From Deinococcales bacterium (GTDB lineage Bacteria > Deinococcota > Deinococci > Deinococcales > JAAFIG01): a stretch of DNA of 15,931 nt. The notes below the pieces were generated by a model that did no database searches, was not told where the DNA came from, and saw only the letters and a program-made list of their open reading frames with translations. This document shows positions 869 through 11,403 of the stretch, piece after piece (the first letter of the stretch is position 1; every line of letters begins with the position of its first letter). The stretch spans positions 1 to 15,931 of the forward strand of contig JANOWZ010000417.1 of assembly GCA_031418155.1 (NCBI GenBank), read 5' to 3'. The position numbers were made by a program, and so were the translations under genes.

Positions 869-1182
869 GATCGCGCCGCCGCCCATTCCGCCTTACGCGC
901 CTCAATCACTTCAATCTGCTCGAGCAACTCCGCCTCGAGGTCCATGAATTCATCCTCGGTGATGCGCCCCGCATCCAAATCCGCACCGAGCGAGGTGAGT
1001 TTGTGGATCAACGGTTTTTCATCCAGCAAGGTTTCTTCGGCCTGATCCGCGATTTGTTCCGCCACCCACAAGATCGGCCCCAGAATCAAATTCAACGGGC
1101 CGAGCAATTCCATGCCCTCGGTGCCAGCGCGAGCCATCAGCGTGAACCTCTGGAAAATGACTGTCTGGCGAGGGCTTGCCAT
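865..1182 (-). CDS. gvpG: Gas vesicle protein G (GvpG)
   Basis: A roughly 100 aa protein with the GvpG-like pattern ELLGPLNLILGPILWVAEQIADQAEETLLDEKPLIHKLTSLGADLDAGRITEDEFMDLEAELLEQI. The ATG at 1182 sits at the centre of a perfect 20 bp palindrome. An alternative internal start (MELLGPL, about 1113) is possible. Confidence 0.65.
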   Translation of the reverse strand: MASPRQTVIFQRFTLMARAGTEGMELLGPLNLILGPILWVAEQIADQAEETLLDEKPLIHKLTSLGADLDAGRITEDEFMDLEAELLEQIEVIEARKAEWAAARS

Positions 1183-1216
1183 GGCAAGCCCCTACGTACA
1201 GGGCGCTCAAGAACCA

Positions 1217-2968: not shown

Positions 2969-5119
2969 TCATCGCTTGCTGGCTTTAACCTCCCCGAGTG
3001 CGTTCTCGAGGTCGGATTGTGTTATCTCGAGGCTAATGCTTTCGTTGTCACCAGTTTCTTTCGTTGAATTAGGTATCGAGGCCACAATTGCGTTCTTGGC
3101 GAGGTGAGCTTGCAAGACCAGCATTGCCGCGCGTCGCACCAACCATTCGAGGTCGGCACCGCTCCAACCCTCTGTCTTTGCGGCCAGGGCATCCAGATTA
3201 AGCTCGCCAGCCGTCGCACGACCCCTCAAATGCACACCGAGGATTTCTGCCCGGTCCGATTCACTTGGCAATTTGAACTCGAGCACCTGTTCAAAGCGCC
3301 CAGGACGCAGTAAAGCCGGATCGAGCGATTCGGGCCGATTCGTTGCGCCCAAAATGATCACGTTCCCAAGACTCGAGATGCCATCCATTTCGGCCAGGAA
3401 TTGACCAATCACCCGGCTCGAGACGGCATCCGCATCGGCACGGTTCGCCAACAATGCGTCGATCTCGTCGAAGAAGACCACGCACGGGGCGCTGGCTCGG
3501 GCCTTGCGGAAGAGTTCGCGCACGGCCTTCTCGGACTCGCCGTAGTACCTCGAGAGAAATTGAGCACCACGCACGGCGATGAAATTCGCCTCGGATTCTT
3601 TGGCGACAGCCCGTGCCGTCAACGTCTTGCCGGTTCCGGGAGGACCCGCCAGCAAGATTCCACGCGGAGGCTCGAGCCGGAGTTGCGCGAACAATTCAGG
3701 GTGCTTGAGGGGAGCCTCGACCGCCTCGATCAATGCGGCTTTGACCTCAGACAAACCACCGATCTCCGTCCAACTCGCACCGGCAATATCGGATTCGGTC
3801 TCGCGGATCAAACTCGGTGAAACCTCACGCAGGGCTGCACGGAAATCCTCCACGCCAACCTCGAGTTGCAACATTTCCTGCGCACTCGGACCTCGACCTG
3901 AGGCCGTCCACGTTGGCAACTGTGAACGGACGCGGTGCATTCCAGCCTCTCGAGCCAAGGCCGCCAAATCCGCACCGACAAAGCCGTGTGTGATTCGCGC
4001 CAAGTCATCCAAATTCACGTCCGGCATCAATGGCATCGCCCGCGTGTGAACCTCAAGGATTTCGCGCCTGCCTTTTGCATCCGGCGGATTGATGACCACT
4101 TCGCGGTCAAACCGTCCGGGCCGACGCAAGGCCGGATCGAGGTTGTCCGGCAGGTTGGTCGCACCGATCACCACGACCTGACCGCGCCCGCCGAGGCCAT
4201 CCATCAACGAGAGGAGTTGCGCAACGACACGCTTCTCGACCTCGCCCTGAACCTCAGAACGCTTCGGACCAATCGCGTCGATCTCGTCCAAGAAAATAAT
4301 GCTCGGGGCTTTCGCTCGAGCCTCCTGAAAAATTTCGCGCAAACGCTTTTCCGAATCCCCATAAAACTTGCCAATGATTTCCGGGCCAGCCACCGAAATG
4401 AAATGCGCCCGTGTCTCACGCGCCACGGCTCGAGCAATCGTGGTCTTGCCGGTTCCGGGCGGGCCGTACAACAACACCCCTTTCGGAGGATCGATTCCCA
4501 ACTGCTCGAACACCTGCGGATAACGCAATGGCAACTCGACCAACTCGCGGACTCGAGCAACCTCACGCGATAAACCGCCGATGTCCTCGTAGCTTGCGCT
4601 CGAAGAAGATTGGGCTGGAGCTTGCGCCTCGCCGGAATTCTCGAGCGCCAAACGCGACTCGCCTCCGACCAACGCATGCGATCCAGGCTCGATGGATTTC
4701 ACCCGCAACTCCAATACCTTCGAGCCGAACAACTCCACGCGAACCCGATCACCCGCCGTCAACGCACGGTCCTGCAACAACGTCTTCAAATCCGAGATTG
4801 CCACGCCCGCACCAGAAATCACCTCGAGCACCACGCTCCGTGCCAAGACCGGCTCGAGTCTTGCAACACGCACTTTCGCACCGATGCTCGAACCCGCATT
4901 TTCTCGGGCCAAACCATCCAGCAACACGCCACGATCACGGTCCTCGGGTCTGGACGGCAACGCACGAACCGCCGTGCTGCGCTCACCCGTGACGACAATC
5001 ACACCACCGGCACGCACGCCCAAACGCTCGAGGTCGGCAGGGGACAGGCGGGCGAGGCCACGGCCCGCATCACGCGGCGCGGCCTCGGCGACGACGATCT
5101 CGAGGGCATCGATTACCAT
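2969..5119 (-). CDS. CDC48/VAT/p97-like AAA+ ATPase (N-domain plus two AAA modules)
   Basis: A CDC48-type N-domain ([21 protein letters not shown]) is followed by two complete AAA cassettes. D1 has [16 protein letters not shown] and [23 protein letters not shown]2 has [18 protein letters not shown] and [21 protein letters not shown]. The ORF track begins at a TTG (5131). The first ATG is at 5119. Confidence 0.85.
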
Positions 5120-5233
5120 GTTGGGTTCCAATTGCGGTTCTGTCGTAGGGGCATCGTGTAATGCACGCTGTTGCGTGACGCATGCCTCGCCCCTACATTC
5201 GCGTTCGCCGAATCAACAACTTGCATCAAACCC

Positions 5234-5725
5234 TCAACCCGCGAACGGAACCATCAACTCGAGGATTCCGTTCTGATAAGACTTCGTGAATTCACCTTTG
5301 ACGGCTTTGGAAAGCTCGAGCGTCTTCGCGTACTTGCGTGCCGCTGCACCGTTCGCTTCAAGCTTCAAGGTTTGTCCCTCGAGCGTGACTTGAATGCTGC
5401 TTTCAACCGCGCCTGGAAGTTCGGCAATCACGCTGTAATGTCCGGTTTCCTCTAGCACGTCAACCATCGGTTCGCGCACGGGTTCGACGCTGGGGTTGCC
5501 ACCGTTGTTCGCCATGTTGCCGAATGTGGAGACGGTCGGTTCACCATTTAAGTTCGTGCGAATGTTGACCCCGATCACACCCTCGAGTCCAGATTTTGTC
5601 GTGAAATTCTGCGTGCCGCCTTCAGCGTTTCCCGCCTGTTTTTGCAATTCTTGAACGACCTCGAGAAGATTGTTGATACCGGAAAAAATTCCGCCAAGTC
5701 CGCTGTTGTCGTTGGTTTTCGCCAT
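5234..5725 (-). CDS. Hsp20/alpha-crystallin family small heat-shock protein (GvpH-like)
   Basis: The alpha-crystallin domain is recognisable: VDVLEETGHYSVIAELPGAVESSIQVTLEGQTLKLEA ... KSYQNGILELMVP. An AGGAGA ribosome-binding site lies about 9 nt upstream of the ATG. The N-terminal region is Gly/Asn-rich. Confidence 0.75.
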   Translation of the reverse strand: MAKTNDNSGLGGIFSGINNLLEVVQELQKQAGNAEGGTQNFTTKSGLEGVIGVNIRTNLNGEPTVSTFGNMANNGGNPSVEPVREPMVDVLEETGHYSVIAELPGAVESSIQVTLEGQTLKLEANGAAARKYAKTLELSKAVKGEFTKSYQNGILELMVPFAG

Positions 5726-5756: not shown

Positions 5757-5812
5757 TGCGAAAAGGGCGAACGTCATGTGATACATGCTGAGCATGCTGA
5801 GTTCGCCCCTAC
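5757..5812 (-). terminator. Terminator-like or attenuator hairpin between the small ORF and the hsp20-like gene
   Basis: On the minus-strand transcript an 8 bp GC-rich stem GGGCGAAC...GTTCGCCC encloses a loop containing the palindrome AGCATGCT and the tandem CATGCTGAG x2. It is followed directly by TTTTCGC. Confidence 0.35.
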
Positions 5813-5830
5813 GGATTCAAAATTCTGGGT

Positions 5831-6121
5831 TCAGTACTCGAGCACCATTGATCCGCCTGATCCCATCGACCCCCGCTTTGGTGCGACCCGAGGGGAAATC
5901 ACTTCGGTTTCGTTTTGCAATTCAATGATTCGCGCTTCAAGTTTCGCCAGCGTTTTTTCACCGTCACTCACGCGCTGCCGCCAGTCGGCCAATCCTCGCT
6001 CGAGGCGCTTGCGTTCGGCGGTGAGTTGGTAGATTTGCAGGTACGTGCGGCTTTCAGATTTGGGCAAGGCCGAACGTCGCAAGCTCGAGGGTGCCAAAGC
6101 AGTTTTGCGTGGGGTGGTCAT
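5831..6121 (-). CDS. Hypothetical small protein (96 aa, basic N-terminus, predicted coiled-coil), gvp-operon member of unknown family
   Basis: A strong AAGGAG ribosome-binding site sits 7 nt upstream of the ATG. Its position between gvpN and hsp20 is consistent with operon membership. No family is recognisable by eye. Confidence 0.55.
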   Translation of the reverse strand: MTTPRKTALAPSSLRRSALPKSESRTYLQIYQLTAERKRLERGLADWRQRVSDGEKTLAKLEARIIELQNETEVISPRVAPKRGSMGSGGSMVLEY

Positions 6122-6137: not shown

Positions 6138-6229
6138 AGAGGAAAGTAAAAGCAGAGAAAAGAGGAAAGTAAGTTCAGATCAAGGTTTTAGGCTGTTACT
6201 TTCCTCTTTTCTCTTTAATCTTTCCTCTT
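6138..6229 (-). terminator. Long hairpin (perfect 19 bp stem AGAGAAAAGAGGAAAGTAA / TTACTTTCCTCTTTTCTCT, about 23 nt loop) immediately downstream of gvpN; possible intrinsic terminator or attenuator
   Basis: The perfect inverted repeat lies at 6154..6172 and 6196..6214. The outer flanks extend it to about 35 bp imperfect. On the minus-strand transcript it is followed by GCUUUUACUUUCC. Confidence 0.45.
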
Positions 6230-6235
6230 GTTTTT

Positions 6236-7240
6236 TTACAACGTCATGGCGCGTGATGGTTTGCGTTCACCACCGGCAAGCACGGGCTCGCGGATCTCGA
6301 GGATTTCCGTGCGTTCTGCTGTACGCTCGAGTGGTTTGATGGTGCGGGCTTTCGGCAAGAGGTGCAGCATTTTGGCAACCGCTTGGCTCGAGACGGTATG
6401 GCGTTCGTGTTCGTCGCTGATGCTGCCGGTCAGGACATCCAAAACCACGCGCTCGAACTCAAGGTTTCCGGCGCTGACTTCAAGGTTGCGGACGCTGGCT
6501 ACTCGAGCGATTTGCAGTGCGGCGCGAACGCTGTGTTTGATTTTCAGTTTGCTTTCGCCACGCACGCTGGCGACCAGTTCGGTGATGGCGAGCGCATCTT
6601 CGAGTTGCAATCCTGATCGGGCGGCAACAATTCCGCCTTGCGTCTCGAGGTCGAATCCCTCTAAACGCATGGTCACTAGGCGATCACGCAAGGCTTCTTG
6701 CGCGAGGTGCACTCCGGCGTAATCTTCCGGGTTGCTGGTGAAAATCGCTCGGAAGTCCGGGTGAACTTTCATGTACCCGCCCTTGCCCGCCGCGCTCGGG
6801 TAGATCAAAATACCTTCCTCGAGCACCGGCAACAGGACGTTGTTCGCTTCGGCTTTGGAGCGTGTGAACTCGTCATAAACGAGCGTGTAACCGTTCTTGC
6901 AGGCAATCGTCAGTCGTTCATCGACCCAGGAATTGCTGGAATCTTCGTCCACTTTCAAAACGCTGTGGATGTAGTTGTCCACGACTTTGCGGCGGCGAAA
7001 TCCGTTGTTCGCGCCCAGCAAATTGCTGGAACCAAACTCGTTGTCACCGGCGATCAGCACCATCGGGCGGCCCAGTTTCGTGGCGACATGCAACGCGAGT
7101 GTGGTTTTTCCGGTGCCGCTCGCGCCTTCAAAGTTCACGCCGAGGCCAGCCTCGAGATATCCCAAAGCGCGTTTGGTCAGGTCTTTGACCTGCGCGGTTT
7201 CAACGAAATCTTCGCGCTGTTTGGTGCTGATTTGACTCAT
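6236..7240 (-). CDS. gvpN: Gas vesicle protein GvpN (MoxR-like AAA+ ATPase)
   Basis: FVETAQVKDLTKRALGYLEAGLGVNFEGASGTGKTTLALHVATKLGRPMVLIAGDNEF matches the conserved GvpN N-terminus and Walker A closely. Walker B VYDEFTRS is present. The ATG overlaps the upstream stop (ATGA at 7237..7240). Confidence 0.9.
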   Translation of the reverse strand: MSQISTKQREDFVETAQVKDLTKRALGYLEAGLGVNFEGASGTGKTTLALHVATKLGRPMVLIAGDNEFGSSNLLGANNGFRRRKVVDNYIHSVLKVDEDSSNSWVDERLTIACKNGYTLVYDEFTRSKAEANNVLLPVLEEGILIYPSAAGKGGYMKVHPDFRAIFTSNPEDYAGVHLAQEALRDRLVTMRLEGFDLETQGGIVAARSGLQLEDALAITELVASVRGESKLKIKHSVRAALQIARVASVRNLEVSAGNLEFERVVLDVLTGSISDEHERHTVSSQAVAKMLHLLPKARTIKPLERTAERTEILEIREPVLAGGERKPSRAMTL

Positions 7241-7983
7241 GCGCCACTCGAGACGTAACCGTTATCGGAAAGTTTGATTTTGCCGCTGGCGACAAGGCGT
7301 TTGAGCATCGTGGCAACTTCGCTTTGATCGAGTTTCAAGCCTTGTGCGAGGTCCTCGAGTGACAATCCTGGAACGCTCGAGATGGTGCGCAAGACGATGT
7401 GCTCGCGGCGTTTCTCGACTGGGTTCAGCACGGCAACGCCGACGGAAAGAGCGCCCTGCGGCATTGGTTTGGCGGCAGGCTTGCTGGCTGGACGGGCCGC
7501 ACGCACGACTGGTTTGACATCCGATCCGCGCATTTGACGGGCGAATCCCTCGAGTTGTTCACGCATGACCGCACGTGCGGTGGCGTGAGCCTCGAGCAAT
7601 TGACCTGTTTCGGCACTGAGCGTTTCGCGTTCACTGGCGCGTTTGCTGGCATCACGGCGGGCGCTCGAGATTCGTTTTGCACCTTGAGCGGCAAGTGTTT
7701 CTTGCACCGTGGCTTTGCGTTGGTTGTTTTCGTGTGCGCGATCAGTTGCGCGTTGAGCGCCCTGGGTGCTGCGAATCTCCGCGATAATCTCGAGCTTCGC
7801 ATGAACGGCTTGCGCTTGGGTTGCAACCTCGTTTGCACGGGCGATGTGTTCAACGGCGCGGATGGTACTTGCCGCCACGAATTCTTCGCGGCGTTCCTGA
7901 TCAAAATTCAGGCGGTCGCTGGCGGATTTGTTCAGTTTCTCGCGCAGTGCGGCTCCAGCCTGGTCATCTAATGTCATCGGCAT
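7237..7983 (-). CDS. Hypothetical coiled-coil protein with KPAAKP-type linker and C-terminal winged-helix-like domain; gene directly downstream of gvpA (possible GvpC-like structural or regulatory role)
   Basis: It is Ala/Glu/Arg/Gln-rich and predicted helical over roughly the first 150 aa. A VKPVVRAARPASKPAAKPMP linker follows. The C-terminus HIVLRTISSVPGLSLEDLAQGLKLDQSEVATMLKRLVASGKIKLSDNGYV resembles a winged-helix (LexA/ArsR-like) fold. The ribosome-binding site is AAAGGTGA. Confidence 0.55.
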   Translation of the reverse strand: MPMTLDDQAGAALREKLNKSASDRLNFDQERREEFVAASTIRAVEHIARANEVATQAQAVHAKLEIIAEIRSTQGAQRATDRAHENNQRKATVQETLAAQGAKRISSARRDASKRASERETLSAETGQLLEAHATARAVMREQLEGFARQMRGSDVKPVVRAARPASKPAAKPMPQGALSVGVAVLNPVEKRREHIVLRTISSVPGLSLEDLAQGLKLDQSEVATMLKRLVASGKIKLSDNGYVSSGA

Positions 7984-8087
7984 GATTTCACCTTTTTGGA
8001 TGTGTCATTGGGTACTGGATGGATACGGGATATGGTTATCGAATAGGGCTTGAACTCGAGGTTTGGGCGGTAGGTGAGGTGTTGAGG

Positions 8088-8118
8088 CTTTTACTTTCCT
8101 CTTTTCTCTTTCCTCTCG
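8088..8118 (-). repeat. Second copy of the purine-rich intergenic element (19-mer TTACTTTCCTCTTTTCTCT identical to 6196..6214) in the gvpA-downstream intergenic region
   Basis: There is an exact 19 nt match to the gvpN-downstream hairpin arm, with similar flanks (GGCTnTTACTTTCCTCTTTTCTCTTT..CCTCT). On the sense (minus) strand it reads GAGAGGAAAGAGAAAAGAGGAAAGTAAAAGCC. Confidence 0.6.
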
Positions 8119-8164
8119 CCCCCAAGCAATTCGGGCGGGCCGAGCGTGATGCCCGACCCACCCG

Positions 8165-8180
8165 CAAGACCTGTGTCTTG
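8165..8180 (-). terminator. Small hairpin CAAGACctgtGTCTTG 17 nt downstream of the gvpA stop, followed by a second GC-rich stem (CGGGC...GCCCG); possible partial terminator or attenuator after gvpA
   Basis: There is a perfect 6 bp inverted repeat with a 4 nt loop. No U-tract follows, so termination is uncertain. Confidence 0.25.
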
Positions 8181-8196: not shown

Positions 8197-8415
8197 TCAG
8201 ACTGCTGGTGCGGCGACCGTCGAGGTCAAACCGATGGCTTCGGCGTACTTCAAGTACGTCTCGACCGATGCAGCAACGACGCGGGCTTCGATGGCGATCA
8301 ATTCGATGCCGACCAGTGAGACGCGGGCGAATGCGTCGATGACGATGCCTTTGTCCAGGATGCGGTCCACAACTTCGCCGAGGCTCGAGGAGTTCATGCT
8401 TTTTTCGACTGCCAT
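8197..8415 (-). CDS. gvpA: Gas vesicle structural protein GvpA
   Basis: [64 protein letters not shown] is a near-consensus GvpA (72 aa). The ATG at 8415 is preceded by a GGAGGT ribosome-binding site. The ORF-track entry 8197..8592 is an in-frame upstream extension with no support. Confidence 0.95.
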
Positions 8416-8840
8416 ATGTACCTCCGTAAAATTTGAATTCTTGGTTCTTGCCCAGGGATAAATGGGGCGATGTTGGGAAAAGAGGTTCAAGAATTCTTTT
8501 GGGTGTTTTTCCGGTTCTTGCCGGTGTGTGAATGGTGCACCCTCGAGCAAGGTTTGAGTAAGCCTCTTCTGGGTATTGGGTATACCCCCCATTTGGGTAT
8601 GCCCGTTTGGGGCTGGTCAAGTTGCGGTCTCGCGCCTACTTTGTTTGGACTCGGAACTGTGGCAAAACTTGTGTGATGCACAGTATTTGTGGGTTCCGCT
8701 ACAGTTTGGTGGTTTGAAAGAATTTTGCAAGAGATGGTTCGGCAAACTGAAGCTCTGGCAAGGGCGAAAAGTTGAACAGGGCTTCTACAAGTTCAGGCCG
8801 ATAAGTTCCAGGCCAGCAGCACAACGAAAGGGGGCGTGAG
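8416..8840. promoter_or_regulatory. About 425 bp divergent regulatory region between gvpA (-) and the acidic E2-like gene (+)
   Basis: It holds no convincing ORF. It contains the GGGTATACCC palindrome plus two more GGGTAT half-sites (about 8570..8606), direct repeats GGTTCTTGCC (8443..8452 and 8513..8522) each near GAATTCTT, and TTGAAC hexamers on both divergent sense strands. Confidence 0.5.
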
Positions 8841-10661
8841 TTGAGTACACGAGGATTCGGCGACACAGACTGGACCGACGGGTTTTCTCGACCGTGGGAT
8901 GTTTCCGTGGCATCATTTGAAGCCATCGAAACCGACCTGGACGAGTTGATCGACCCGGACGGGATCGAGTCTGCATTGGCCATCGACGATCAGGGGAATT
9001 TCCTCGCCTGGATGGATTCGGAACGCGGGATGGCTCCAGTGCCGCTCGCGGCTTCAGAGTTCGAGGCTCCGGTGGCGCAAGATTTGAACGCGCCAGCGGC
9101 GAAAGTGTCTAAGGGTTTCAAACGGTTCACGCCGCCAGTTCCGGTGGTTGAGCCCAGCGAACCGACGACCTATCAGGCCAGCAGCGAGGCGATTGATGCG
9201 GTGTTTGCCGAACTCGAGGCGAGCGCCAAAGCCAGCACAGAACAGTCAGATGCACCCGAGGTTGAGGCGCAGGCAGATGTTCAGGTTCAGGCCGATTCGG
9301 ACATTTATGCTGAGGTCCATTCTGAAGATCAAGACGATCAGGGTGCGGTTGAAGCAAAGGCCAAGAAGCCAAAAATTGATCCGATGGCGCTCGAGGATGC
9401 GTTCGAGAGTGTGCCGTTTGACCTTCCAGAGTTGATGGGCGAACAGTCTGGCACTGTACTCAGTGAGCAACCTGTCGCGCTCGAGGGTGAAGCGGAGGCG
9501 GTCGAAGCTCAGGCAGAAGTTGAACTCCCAGCAGTTGAAGCTCAGGCAGAAGTGGTCGAGGTTGAAGTTCCAGCAATCGAAGCTCAGGTTGAAGTTGTTG
9601 AGGCCGAAGCAATTGTCATTCCCGAGGGCGAACCGGTCGAACCCGTCGCCGCCTGGAAGAAGCCCGTCAAACCCAAAAAGCAACCCAGCGAATTTGGCAT
9701 CGACGAAGTTCCACTCGAAGCGCTGCTCGAGATTGCGAATACCGAGGCCGAAGACGAAGAGAATCATGCCGAGGCCGAAGCCGTCACGATTGACCTGCAA
9801 CCCGAGGCGGATGCGCTTGCCGCAGTTGGCTTGGGCGAAGCAAGCCTTCAGGAAGGCATCATGGCCGCTTACGAGATGGAGGGTGCGCCAATCACCGATT
9901 TGAGCGCATTGATCGAGAGCAGCAAAGCACTCGAGGTTTCAACCGCCCGTGAAGCGGTCAACGAACCGGTCGCCACACCCGTTCATGCCGGATTTGTTGC
10001 TACTGCTGAAAGCAATGAATCGCCAGAGGCCGTGCTCCAGGCGCTCGAGACCAGCGTGCTCGGATTTGAAACACCAGAGATTCAACCGCTCGATGCAGAA
10101 CTCGAAACGGATTCCAGCGTCGCGGCAGTGCTGGCCCCAGAAATCATGAATGTCCCGATGATGCCCGCGACGACCACGTTGCGCCGTCACTTCGACGCGA
10201 CCGACCTGATCGAAGCGCAGATTCGTTTGCGTCACGCACTGCGCCCATTGGACGTTTCGATGGTCTCGCTCTTGGGTCGCGCCGCCGAACGTTGCGCCCT
10301 CGAGTTGCCGGGAATCAAAACGATTGCACTCGCCGAACTCGGCGACAATGGGATTGCAGTCACCGCCAAGATCAAAGCCGTCGAAAGCTTCCGCGAGATG
10401 CTTGCGGGCATCAGCGAGGGCTCGAGCGGCGTTCGTGGCGACCTGAGCGTCGTTGACATCAGCGACCTCGGCTTGGATGAAGTGGTCTTGCCACTCGCCG
10501 GACCGCACCTCTTGCTGACCCGTCTTTCGCCACACCCGGACAAACCGGGTCGCATGCGCGGCACGGTCTCTCTCTCTGGCCTCGTGAACCTTCGCGCTGG
10601 CGCATCATTCCTCGATCAGGTCGTCTCGAAACTCGAGGCTCCGATCACGCTGATGGTCTGA
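8841..10661 (+). CDS. Acidic tandem-repeat protein with a C-terminal 2-oxoacid dehydrogenase E2 acyltransferase (CAT-like) catalytic-domain homologue lacking the catalytic His/Asp
   Basis: A TTG start is preceded by an AAAGGGGG ribosome-binding site. The N-terminal roughly 430 aa are highly acidic and low-complexity with EAQAEV-type repeats. The C-terminal roughly 170 aa align to the E2 catalytic domain: RRHFDATDLIEAQIRLRH against HFDKTDITELEAFRK, VVDISDLGLDEV against FTISSIGGLG, and TVSLSGLVNLRAGASFLDQVVSKLEAP against ISLSFDHRVIDGADGARFI. In that alignment DHR is replaced by LVN. Confidence 0.7.
   Translation: MSTRGFGDTDWTDGFSRPWDVSVASFEAIETDLDELIDPDGIESALAIDDQGNFLAWMDSERGMAPVPLAASEFEAPVAQDLNAPAAKVSKGFKRFTPPVPVVEPSEPTTYQASSEAIDAVFAELEASAKASTEQSDAPEVEAQADVQVQADSDIYAEVHSEDQDDQGAVEAKAKKPKIDPMALEDAFESVPFDLPELMGEQSGTVLSEQPVALEGEAEAVEAQAEVELPAVEAQAEVVEVEVPAIEAQVEVVEAEAIVIPEGEPVEPVAAWKKPVKPKKQPSEFGIDEVPLEALLEIANTEAEDEENHAEAEAVTIDLQPEADALAAVGLGEASLQEGIMAAYEMEGAPITDLSALIESSKALEVSTAREAVNEPVATPVHAGFVATAESNESPEAVLQALETSVLGFETPEIQPLDAELETDSSVAAVLAPEIMNVPMMPATTTLRRHFDATDLIEAQIRLRHALRPLDVSMVSLLGRAAERCALELPGIKTIALAELGDNGIAVTAKIKAVESFREMLAGISEGSSGVRGDLSVVDISDLGLDEVVLPLAGPHLLLTRLSPHPDKPGRMRGTVSLSGLVNLRAGASFLDQVVSKLEAPITLMV
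9500..9620 (+). repeat. Imperfect tandem DNA repeat (about 3 units of 33 to 42 nt, core GAAGCTCAGGCAGAAGT) encoding VEAQAEV(V/E) repeats
   Basis: GAAGCTCAGG(C/T)(A/T)GAAGT recurs at about 9506, 9540 and 9582. Confidence 0.6.
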
Positions 10662-10758: not shown

Positions 10759-11403
10759 ATGAGTGATCTCTTCAGAGACGGTTTCATTGACGAGATCGTT
10801 GATGCCTACGTCAAGGACTTCGGCGACCGCGTGGAAAACACCGACCGCTTCGAGCACTACTCCCCAGGACATGCCCGTCGTGTAGCCGAAACCAGCGTCG
10901 CCATCTGCGAAGGTTTGGATTTCGAGGAAGAAGACATTCGCGTCGTCAAAACCGCCGGGTTGCTCCACGACATCGGCGAGGTCATTCAAAAGCACGCCTT
11001 CTACGGCGCACCTCGAGTCTTGACCCCAGAAGAAACCGTTGAGATGTGGCAACACAGCCTGATCGGTGAACGCGAAGTGGCACGTCGCGGTTTTGGACGC
11101 AAAGAACAGTTGCTGGTGCGTTGGCATCACGAACGCTGGAACGGTCAGGGCTACCCGGACATGCTGTTCGGACCCGACTTGCCGCTCGGTGCTCGCATCA
11201 TCCGTTTGGCGGACACCTGGGATGCGCTGACAAACGACCGTCCGTGGCGTTTGGCGATGTCTGAAGCCGATGCGCTCGAGGAGATCAAACTCGGTGCAGG
11301 CATGGAGTTCGATCCAGAACTCGTCGGCTTGTTCCTCGAGTTGCACCAATGCGGAGCCTTGATCCCAAGTGAAAACTTCGCCATCTCAGGAGGCAAACGA
11401 TGA
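10759..11403 (+). CDS. HD-GYP domain protein (stand-alone cyclic-di-nucleotide phosphodiesterase-like)
   Basis: The HD motif (LLHDIGEV) and the HD-GYP signature WHHERWNGQGYPD are both present. The start is assigned to the ATG at 10759, 5 nt after the GGAAAGGAAA ribosome-binding site. The ORF track begins at a GTG at 10744. Confidence 0.8.
   Translation: MSDLFRDGFIDEIVDAYVKDFGDRVENTDRFEHYSPGHARRVAETSVAICEGLDFEEEDIRVVKTAGLLHDIGEVIQKHAFYGAPRVLTPEETVEMWQHSLIGEREVARRGFGRKEQLLVRWHHERWNGQGYPDMLFGPDLPLGARIIRLADTWDALTNDRPWRLAMSEADALEEIKLGAGMEFDPELVGLFLELHQCGALIPSENFAISGGKR

Follow-up and report, generated by a model that had tools for sequence, protein, structure and literature searches.

A gas-vesicle (gvp) operon, recognized from gene calls and Pfam matches, lies on the minus strand of the 15,931-nt stretch of DNA analyzed here (hereafter, the window), and two of its genes, one hsp20-like and one CDC48-like, are each preceded by a hairpin with the same 10-mer at its head. 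An initial annotation of this DNA had offered two alternatives for such hairpins: a common promoter, operator or processing site for the chaperone genes, or a short dispersed repeat. Which of the two applies is the question raised by this locus.

Read along the minus strand, on which all of the following genes lie, gvpA (ATG at 8415, 72 aa as called) is followed by a MarR-like winged-helix gene identified in the Pfam scan (7237-7983), a gvpN-type AAA_5 gene (6236-7240), a 96-aa ORF without a Pfam family (5831-6121), the hsp20-like gene of 163 aa (5234-5725, ATG at 5725), the gene for a CDC48-like double AAA+ ATPase of 716 aa (2969-5119; Pfam CDC48_N, two AAA domains and AAA_lid_3), a GvpF-DnaJ fusion (2008-2952), a gvpF/L gene (1217-2011; Pfam GvpL_GvpF, 2.3e-49), gvpG (865-1137, 90 aa; Pfam GvpG) and a second gvpF/L gene (83-886). 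The ATG at 5119 is also the start called for the CDC48-like gene on L001 and others. The hsp20-like protein has no Pfam match at 1e-3; its homologues carry the JGI name HSP20, and PF00011 is found on more distant ones.

The closest genome record is the MAG GL116_DN_concoct_233 (L218), labeled Deinococcales bacterium at NCBI, whose hsp20-like protein is 98% identical to that of the window. A second MAG, GL73_DN_metabinner_10 (L131, the same as L219), stands at 57%. Gaps were compared among close strains (L218, L134, L251 and L252, with hsp20-like proteins 92-98% identical to the window's) and against a more distant set of relatives at 57-60% identity. A metagenome scan with the hsp20-like protein returned distant relatives only (46% identity or less), which were of little use for comparing sites.

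Shared hairpins in the gvp operon

The 10-mer GTAGGGGCGA has two exact matches in the window, at 5187-5196 and 5803-5812 on the minus strand, and three matches when one mismatch is allowed (0.53 expected). The 8-mer GTAGGGGC occurs four times (0.10 expected), a count that was reached in none of 200 shuffles. Upstream of gvpA, at 8630-8639 on the minus strand, the 10-mer recurs with one mismatch (GTAGGCGCGA); no hairpin partner was seen there, and the match is probably due to chance. The two 10-mer-headed hairpins reported upstream of the CDC48-like and hsp20-like genes are present as originally quoted (GTAGGGGCGAGGCATGCGTCACGCAACAGCGTGCATTACACGATGCCCCTAC, 5196-5145, and GTAGGGGCGAACTCAGCATGCTCAGCATGTATCACATGACGTTCGCCCTTTT, 5812-5761, both on the minus strand), and both contain the GCATGC palindromes ascribed to them. 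Both also fold, with energies of -28.2 kcal/mol (z -2.2 against shuffles) for the former, hereafter copy 1, and -24.7 kcal/mol (z -3.5) for the latter, copy 2.

A third copy of the core had been noted near gvpG. It is indeed there (copy 3), although at 1188-1195 rather than 1189-1196, but its reported location 5 nt upstream of the gvpG ATG did not hold, as the ATG in question (1182) lies inside a palindrome, CCATGG, and is probably not the start of gvpG. The gene callers and L218 both point to the ATG at 1137, and in L218 stop codons occur directly upstream of the matching ATG. Since these observations favor ATG 1137, the false start codon inside the palindrome can be corrected, and copy 3 is intergenic, 58 nt upstream of gvpG. 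All three elements therefore lie in intergenic gaps of the gvp operon. The GTAG head lies 77 nt from the start of the CDC48-like gene, 87 nt from that of the hsp20-like gene and 58 nt from that of gvpG; this range of 58-87 nt in the window is not conserved in relatives, contrary to the idea of a similar distance to the downstream start.

Anatomy of the repeat unit and its copies

The unit of this species consists of GTAG and the two arms GGGCGAAC and GTTCGCCC, separated by a loop of 4-6 nt; the arms give an 8-bp, G+C-rich stem with three G-C pairs at its base. Units occur singly or as inverted pairs, with single units only in the window. In every unit with a GGG[CT]GANC...GNTC[GA]CCC stem from the window, L218, L134, L251 and L252, GTAG was present on exactly one strand, and the stems vary in a compensatory manner (GGGCGAAC/GTTCGCCC and GGGCGACC/GGTCGCCC). 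Unit length is 24-26 nt in L218, L251 and L252, and 24 nt for copy 3 of the window, and the plain unit folds with -16.2 kcal/mol (z -5.0). REP units were taken to be short palindromes (20-40 bp) whose G+C-rich stem measures 6-13 bp. The elements described here have this short palindromic form, carry GTAG at one end of the hairpin and are extragenic, being located between ORFs of the same direction and near the 3' end of the upstream ORF.

Copy 2 (5765-5812, minus strand) begins 18 nt past the stop codon of the 96-aa ORF and comprises GTAG (5812-5809), the stem arm GGGCGAAC (5808-5801), a 28-nt loop (5800-5773) and the stem arm GTTCGCCC (5772-5765). Since L251 has a plain unit, GTAGGGGCGAAC-ATGAC-GTTCGCCC, at the same site, copy 2 corresponds to a plain unit with a 23-nt loop insert. 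This comparison delimits the insert as the CATG-rich sequence TCAGCATGCTCAGCATGTATCAC (5778-5800, minus strand), which includes GCATGC. The insert resembles the interior of copy 1, with an equal or higher score in 33 of 2000 shuffles, and a related 29-nt insert fills the loop of the left REP of L251 at the site between the hsp20-like and CDC48-like genes. The copy 2 stem is directly followed by TTTT (5761-5764, minus strand) and then CGCAC, a weak terminator-like site, and GCCCTTTT is kept at this site in L218, L134, L251 and L252.

Copy 1 (5145-5196, minus strand) begins 37 nt past the stop of the hsp20-like gene and ends 25 nt short of the CDC48-like ATG. It is a "double-foot" hairpin made up of GTAGGGGC, 36 nt and GCCCCTAC, so that GTAG can be read on both strands, and it is without a clean REP stem, pairing only at the GTAGGGGC/GCCCCTAC foot. 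Compared with L218, L251 and L252, copy 1 represents the left unit, its loop enlarged by a CATG-rich insert, and the right unit is missing; judging from this arrangement, it looks like the remnant of a rearranged inverted REP pair. Copy 3 (1172-1195, minus strand) begins 21 nt past the gvpF/L stop and has a different stem, with GTAG followed by GGGCTTGC, CATG and GCAAGCCC. It folds with -18.4 kcal/mol (z -2.75), and its tail, TCGCCAG (1171-1165), is common to REP units in L218, L134, L251 and L252.

Operon gaps without GTAG hairpins contain a second repeat family. A perfect 19-nt inverted repeat, AGAGAAAAGAGGAAAGTAA / TTACTTTCCTCTTTTCTCT, occupies the gap between the gvpN-type gene and the 96-aa ORF (6154-6214), and a third copy (89% over 35 nt) occurs between gvpA and the MarR-like gene (8082-8116). 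In L218, the related repeat AGTGAAAAGTGGAAGG is found at 669-717 and beside a REP at ~9112-9135. A G+C-rich hairpin, GCGGGTGGGTCGGGC-ATCAC-GCTCGGCCCGCCCG, is also present on the minus strand at 8132-8165, ~30 nt past the gvpA stop and without a T run; from its sequence and position, it might serve as an attenuator behind this major structural gene.

Variation among related strains

Flanking sequences are conserved at the three REP sites among the strains at 92-98% identity, and the content of all three differs between these related strains. Between the 96-aa ORF and the hsp20-like gene, loop lengths are 5 nt in L251, 28 nt in the window and 83 nt in L218 and L134, where a second module, present twice in tandem, makes up the 83-nt insert. 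At the site between the hsp20-like and CDC48-like genes, L218, L251 and L252 have inverted pairs, L134 has a pair carrying a loop insert of 44 nt, and the window has the single double-foot hairpin. The tags of these inverted pairs face inwards, with spacers of 11 nt (L218), 9 nt (L251 and L252) and 27 nt (L134). Inverted pairs of the kind known from BIMEs and REPINs (HH or TT dimers) are thus present in these four relatives, and the pair in L218 forms a perfect 26-bp stem of -56.5 kcal/mol (z -12.5). The gap between gvpF and gvpG has a 24-nt unit in the window and a different element of ~110 nt in L218; it is absent from L131, whose gvpF and gvpG genes overlap. Loci L001-L010, in which the hsp20-like protein is 100% identical, are the same as the window, and the relatives at 57-60% identity have no element before hsp20. 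In these comparisons, the hairpins are unstable, recently changing repeats at fixed gaps and not conserved regulatory sequence.

Several further sequences were observed at or near these sites. A nested module, AAGCCCGyTAGGTGCTG.T.TGGGrTCAAGA, of 33-44 nt occurs singly or in tandem in the REP loops of relatives (L218, 1059-1165; L134, 757-863 and 1510-1577; L131, ~10800-10860; L252, 1-40). A separate, CATG-rich module of 23-29 nt occupies the loop of copy 2 and that of the left unit of L251, and it resembles the interior of copy 1. In addition, a MITE-like element of ~110-200 nt with inverted ends, CCCCTGCGAAGTAGG...CTACTTCGCAGGGGG, was seen in L218 (~5780-5905), where it fills the gvpF-gvpG gap that holds copy 3 in the window, and in L254 (~4210-4400), where it takes up some of the gap preceding the CDC48-like gene. 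The relatives at 57-60% identity also encode a conserved coiled-coil ORF of 60-66 aa between the hsp20-like and CDC48-like genes (L131, 10538-10720; L137, 3004-3204; L254, 3868-4050). This ORF is absent from the window, which has a REP hairpin in its place, and the "60-aa ORF" called at the same position in L134 and L135, where it overlaps the REP pair, is probably spurious.

Distribution within and beyond the lineage

All copies seen in this lineage are inside the gvp cluster, with three copies in the window and four units in L218. No copy was found in ~14 kb of DNA from this species outside gvp, made up of window positions 8.8-15.9 kb and L239 (reached via an ABC transporter and providing ~7 kb extra), or in ~10 kb of flanking DNA in L131. 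Counted by intergenic gap, copies occur in 3/5 gvp gaps and 0/~8 non-gvp gaps (Fisher's exact p ~0.035, from a hand count and hand calculation on very small numbers), which is suggestive of local enrichment in the gvp cluster.

When a protein database was searched with REP-encoded peptides, the sole match was L218's own 42-aa ORF. No gene for a REP-associated tyrosine transposase (RAYT / TnpA-REP) was detected when 1.9 Mb of loci were searched by tblastn with an E. coli RayT query, and the motif [ND]H.H...Y[IV]..[NQ]P (HUH...Y, subclass 2.4) had no match across the same loci; these loci are not the genome itself, about which the result is hardly informative. The best tblastn matches to RayT were at chance level and were rejected, the underlying ORFs being phage terminase, portal or protease genes.

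The DNA of this lineage has a signature of its own in the hexamer CTCGAG, which occurs 108 times in the 15.9 kb of the window, or ~7 per kb (4.8 copies expected). The excess is common to all relatives down to 57% protein identity (L131, L137, L218 and L134) and is absent from unrelated loci. Coding DNA holds 97 of the copies, spread over all three frames (67/19/11), and non-coding DNA holds 11. Since CTCGAG occurs in all frames as well as in non-coding DNA, it is a DNA-level signal, reminiscent of the cyanobacterial HIP1 palindrome.

Outside the lineage, the tagged hairpin GTAGGGGCGAAC-N5-GTTCGCCC was found on 12 IMG/VR contigs without the CTCGAG signature. When IMG/VR was searched for the stem without its tag, GGGCGAAC-N5-GTTCGCCC, GTAG/CTAC was present on 13/24 hairpins, as compared to 0.8% by chance. 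A looser hairpin scan (one mismatch, loops up to 95 nt) had a 7% background and was uninformative for tag statistics. The 28-nt double-foot form, GTAGGGGC-N12-GCCCCTAC, occurred in at least 120 stretches, whereas a rearranged control foot of the same composition, GATGGGGC...GCCCCATC, was found in 17 over the entire collection. The length distribution of GTAGGGGC...GCCCCTAC hairpins peaked at 28 nt and 47 nt, the 47-nt form being two hairpins. L213 and L202, which are from other organisms, have several copies each, including one pair in which the CTAC end is 1 nt from the GTAG of the next unit. Three IMG/VR contigs with GTAGGGGC...GCCCCTAC palindromes (L036, L087 and L109) have terminase-, portal- or protease-like ORFs, as judged by eye from their translations, and REP-type hairpins thus seem to be present in real phage genomes as well.

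Alternative explanations

The main rival to a dispersed repeat is a cis-regulatory RNA private to this operon (an attenuator, processing site or mRNA-stability element), selected for the chaperone/structural ratio and spread by local duplication or gene conversion. Such an element would be in keeping with the restriction of all lineage copies seen to gvp gaps and their absence from ~24 kb of flanking DNA, and with the stem and TTTT upstream of hsp20, which are kept in five strains despite the turnover of the loop. It would also suit the presence in L131, the relative at 57% identity, of a GTAG hairpin with the same TTTTCGCACAA behind it, and the G-T mismatches of the stems, which still pair as G-U in RNA. 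However, an identical tagged core is found on many unrelated contigs, phage contigs included, and near-identical strains differ site by site as whole units come and go. Furthermore, there is no element before hsp20 in the 57-60% relatives or before gvpG in L131, and no Rfam family matched the hairpins of the window, L134, L251, L252 or L218 at E values up to 1, with chance, miRNA-like matches on long hairpins only. On balance, we consider an operon-private element unlikely.

Internal promoters or operators would require that GTAGGGGCGA and the palindromes be bound by a regulator, e.g., the operon's MarR-like protein, or that they mark transcription starts of the hsp20 and AAA+ genes. The motif does stand on the sense strand 58-87 nt upstream of three starts, and a MarR-like winged-helix protein is encoded within the operon at 7237-7983. 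Nevertheless, neither the fixed spacing nor the fixed start distance of a sigma-70 promoter or palindromic operator was found; the arms are separated by 4-83 nt at orthologous sites, their inner sequence varies, and the end of the element is 35 nt from the start in the window and ~70 nt in L251. In addition, a promoter scan gave no sigma-70-like match near either site, one of the sister strains' two units is missing in the window, and the same hairpin occurs in unrelated genomes without a gvp context. We therefore regard this explanation as very improbable. The proposal of a common promoter, operator or processing site for the chaperone genes is not borne out, given the same variability and the lack of an element before hsp20 in the 57-60% relatives, which removes a tempting reading of a shared promoter/operator over the gas-vesicle chaperone genes. 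The TTTT after the copy 2 stem might suggest a chance resemblance among ordinary G+C-rich terminator hairpins, but this is excluded by the number of GTAGGGGC copies relative to expectation and shuffles, by the GTAG tag on over half of the 24 independent IMG/VR hairpins, and by the perfect repeated units in relatives. Integron attC sites and CRISPR repeats were likewise rejected, since the core sites are not of the attC type and the copies form no regular array.

The other alternative of the initial annotation, a short dispersed repeat, is backed by the GTAG REP anatomy, the inverted pairs in sister strains, the differences in content between conserved flanks and the copies on unrelated contigs. 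The best explanation is thus that the three hairpins are most likely GTAG-tagged REP elements in the gaps of the gvp operon and not a dedicated promoter/operator. A secondary, RNA-level role as stabilizing or attenuating stem-loops is plausible.

Possible spread and effects on gvp mRNA

As GTAG-tagged REPs, and by analogy to the named families, the hairpins would be non-autonomous elements that spread as single-strand DNA through a RAYT / TnpA-REP enzyme, which would recognize the hairpin with GTAG as a guide. Cleavage by TnpA-REP needs GTAG (PMC8266576). Gene conversion and deletion between neighboring copies may add to the turnover, with loop insertion occurring later.

All three hairpins would presumably be transcribed within the polycistronic gvp mRNA and form stable stem-loops just past the stop codon of the upstream gene. 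These stem-loops could block 3'-5' exonucleases and partly attenuate read-through, such that the distal hsp20-like, CDC48-like and gvpG genes would be expressed at levels unlike those of the proximal genes. REP stem-loops are reported, from work on E. coli malEFG, to affect the stability of the upstream message or to attenuate read-through. Both stabilization of the upstream message and attenuation of read-through have been proposed for REPs in general (background of PMC3733652).

Copy 2 would be the best candidate for a real effect, because its stem is followed by UUUU and this arrangement is kept in all five strains. Its stem of 8-9 bp, 28-nt loop and TTTT have a counterpart in L251, with the same stem, a 5-nt loop and TTTT, and GCCC+TTTT is kept at the hsp20 site in five strains. 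A terminator scan, which needs at least five T and a loop of up to 8 nt, made no call at any hairpin; copy 2 was not called because its loop is too long and it has four T only. In L131, a GTAG hairpin in another gap is also followed by a 13-nt match, CCTTTTCGCACAA. Together, the kept GCCC+TTTT and the CCTTTTCGCACAA match may point to a terminator-like site kept by selection instead of a passive repeat. The natural series at this one site (a plain unit and units with loop inserts of 23 nt and 83 nt) could serve to determine the effect of a REP on read-through within an operon.

A more far-reaching possibility, which we think quite doubtful, is that the hairpins are concentrated in the gvp operon with their loops serving as landing pads for smaller nested repeats, and that the turnover of these inserts from strain to strain retunes attenuation and mRNA stability between structural and chaperone genes, so that the hairpins would be more than passive passengers. 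The nested repeats seen are the CATG-rich module of 23-29 nt and the AGGTGCTGG...TCAAGA module of 33-44 nt, the latter also as a tandem pair. If this were true, it would amount to a REP-based, rapidly evolving control of relative expression within an operon.

Comparison with known systems

The general phenomenon of GTAG REPs is already well described. The present results extend it to a lineage without cultured members, known from metagenomes of glacier-fed streams and labeled Deinococcales at NCBI, a group for which the surveys consulted list no REPs. REPs of the GTAG superfamily (REP/BIME/REPIN; Di Nocera, De Gregorio and Rocco 2013, PMC3733652) are characterized by a GTAG tag, stems of 6-13 bp, loops of 2 to ~27 nt and inverted pairs 1-100 bp apart, and they are located between same-direction ORFs, near the 3' end of the upstream ORF (PMC3733652). 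The hairpins described here share the terminal GTAG beside a short, G+C-rich stem-loop, with an 8-bp stem that is inside the published range and loops that are likewise variable and sometimes long. Dimers of the "TT" type, with the tags inside, are found 9-27 nt apart in L218, L251, L252 and L134, and the location between same-direction ORFs near the upstream stop is shared, as are the differences between strains. Unlike the published REPs, the copies reported here were seen in the gvp cluster only, their host is labeled as a member of a phylum absent from that survey's list, and their loops contain nested, repeated inserts of 23-83 nt that vary from strain to strain. Many copies dispersed over the genome and a cognate RAYT gene, typically with REPs on either side, are further defining features of the family.

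Copy 2 also resembles intrinsic terminators and the REP attenuators of E. coli (Espeli et al. 2001; Higgins et al. 1988), as the latter are cited in PMC3733652, in having a G+C-rich stem and a T run between cistrons, and an effect on read-through and upstream mRNA stability would be expected here as well. In contrast to intrinsic terminators, it has just four T and a 28-nt loop, and copies 1 and 3 are without a T run.

There is also agreement with the REPs of TnpA-REP subclass 2.4 (Quentin et al. 2018, PMC6006769), which have three G-C pairs at the base of the stem and include "double foot" forms, bounded by GTAG on one side and CTAC on the other (PMC6006769). The sequences examined showed no tnpA-REP gene next to or near any copy, and assignment to this subclass is by REP shape only. 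The hairpins of this lineage likewise have GTAG at the foot of a GTAG-GGG...CCC stem, and the double foot, with a 5' GTAG and a 3' CTAC, is matched by copy 1 of the window and by the 28-nt palindromes of IMG/VR. It has been suggested that a double foot could come from a deletion within an inverted pair (PMC6006769), and an origin by such a central deletion fits the single hairpin of the window as compared to the inverted pairs of L218, L251 and L252.
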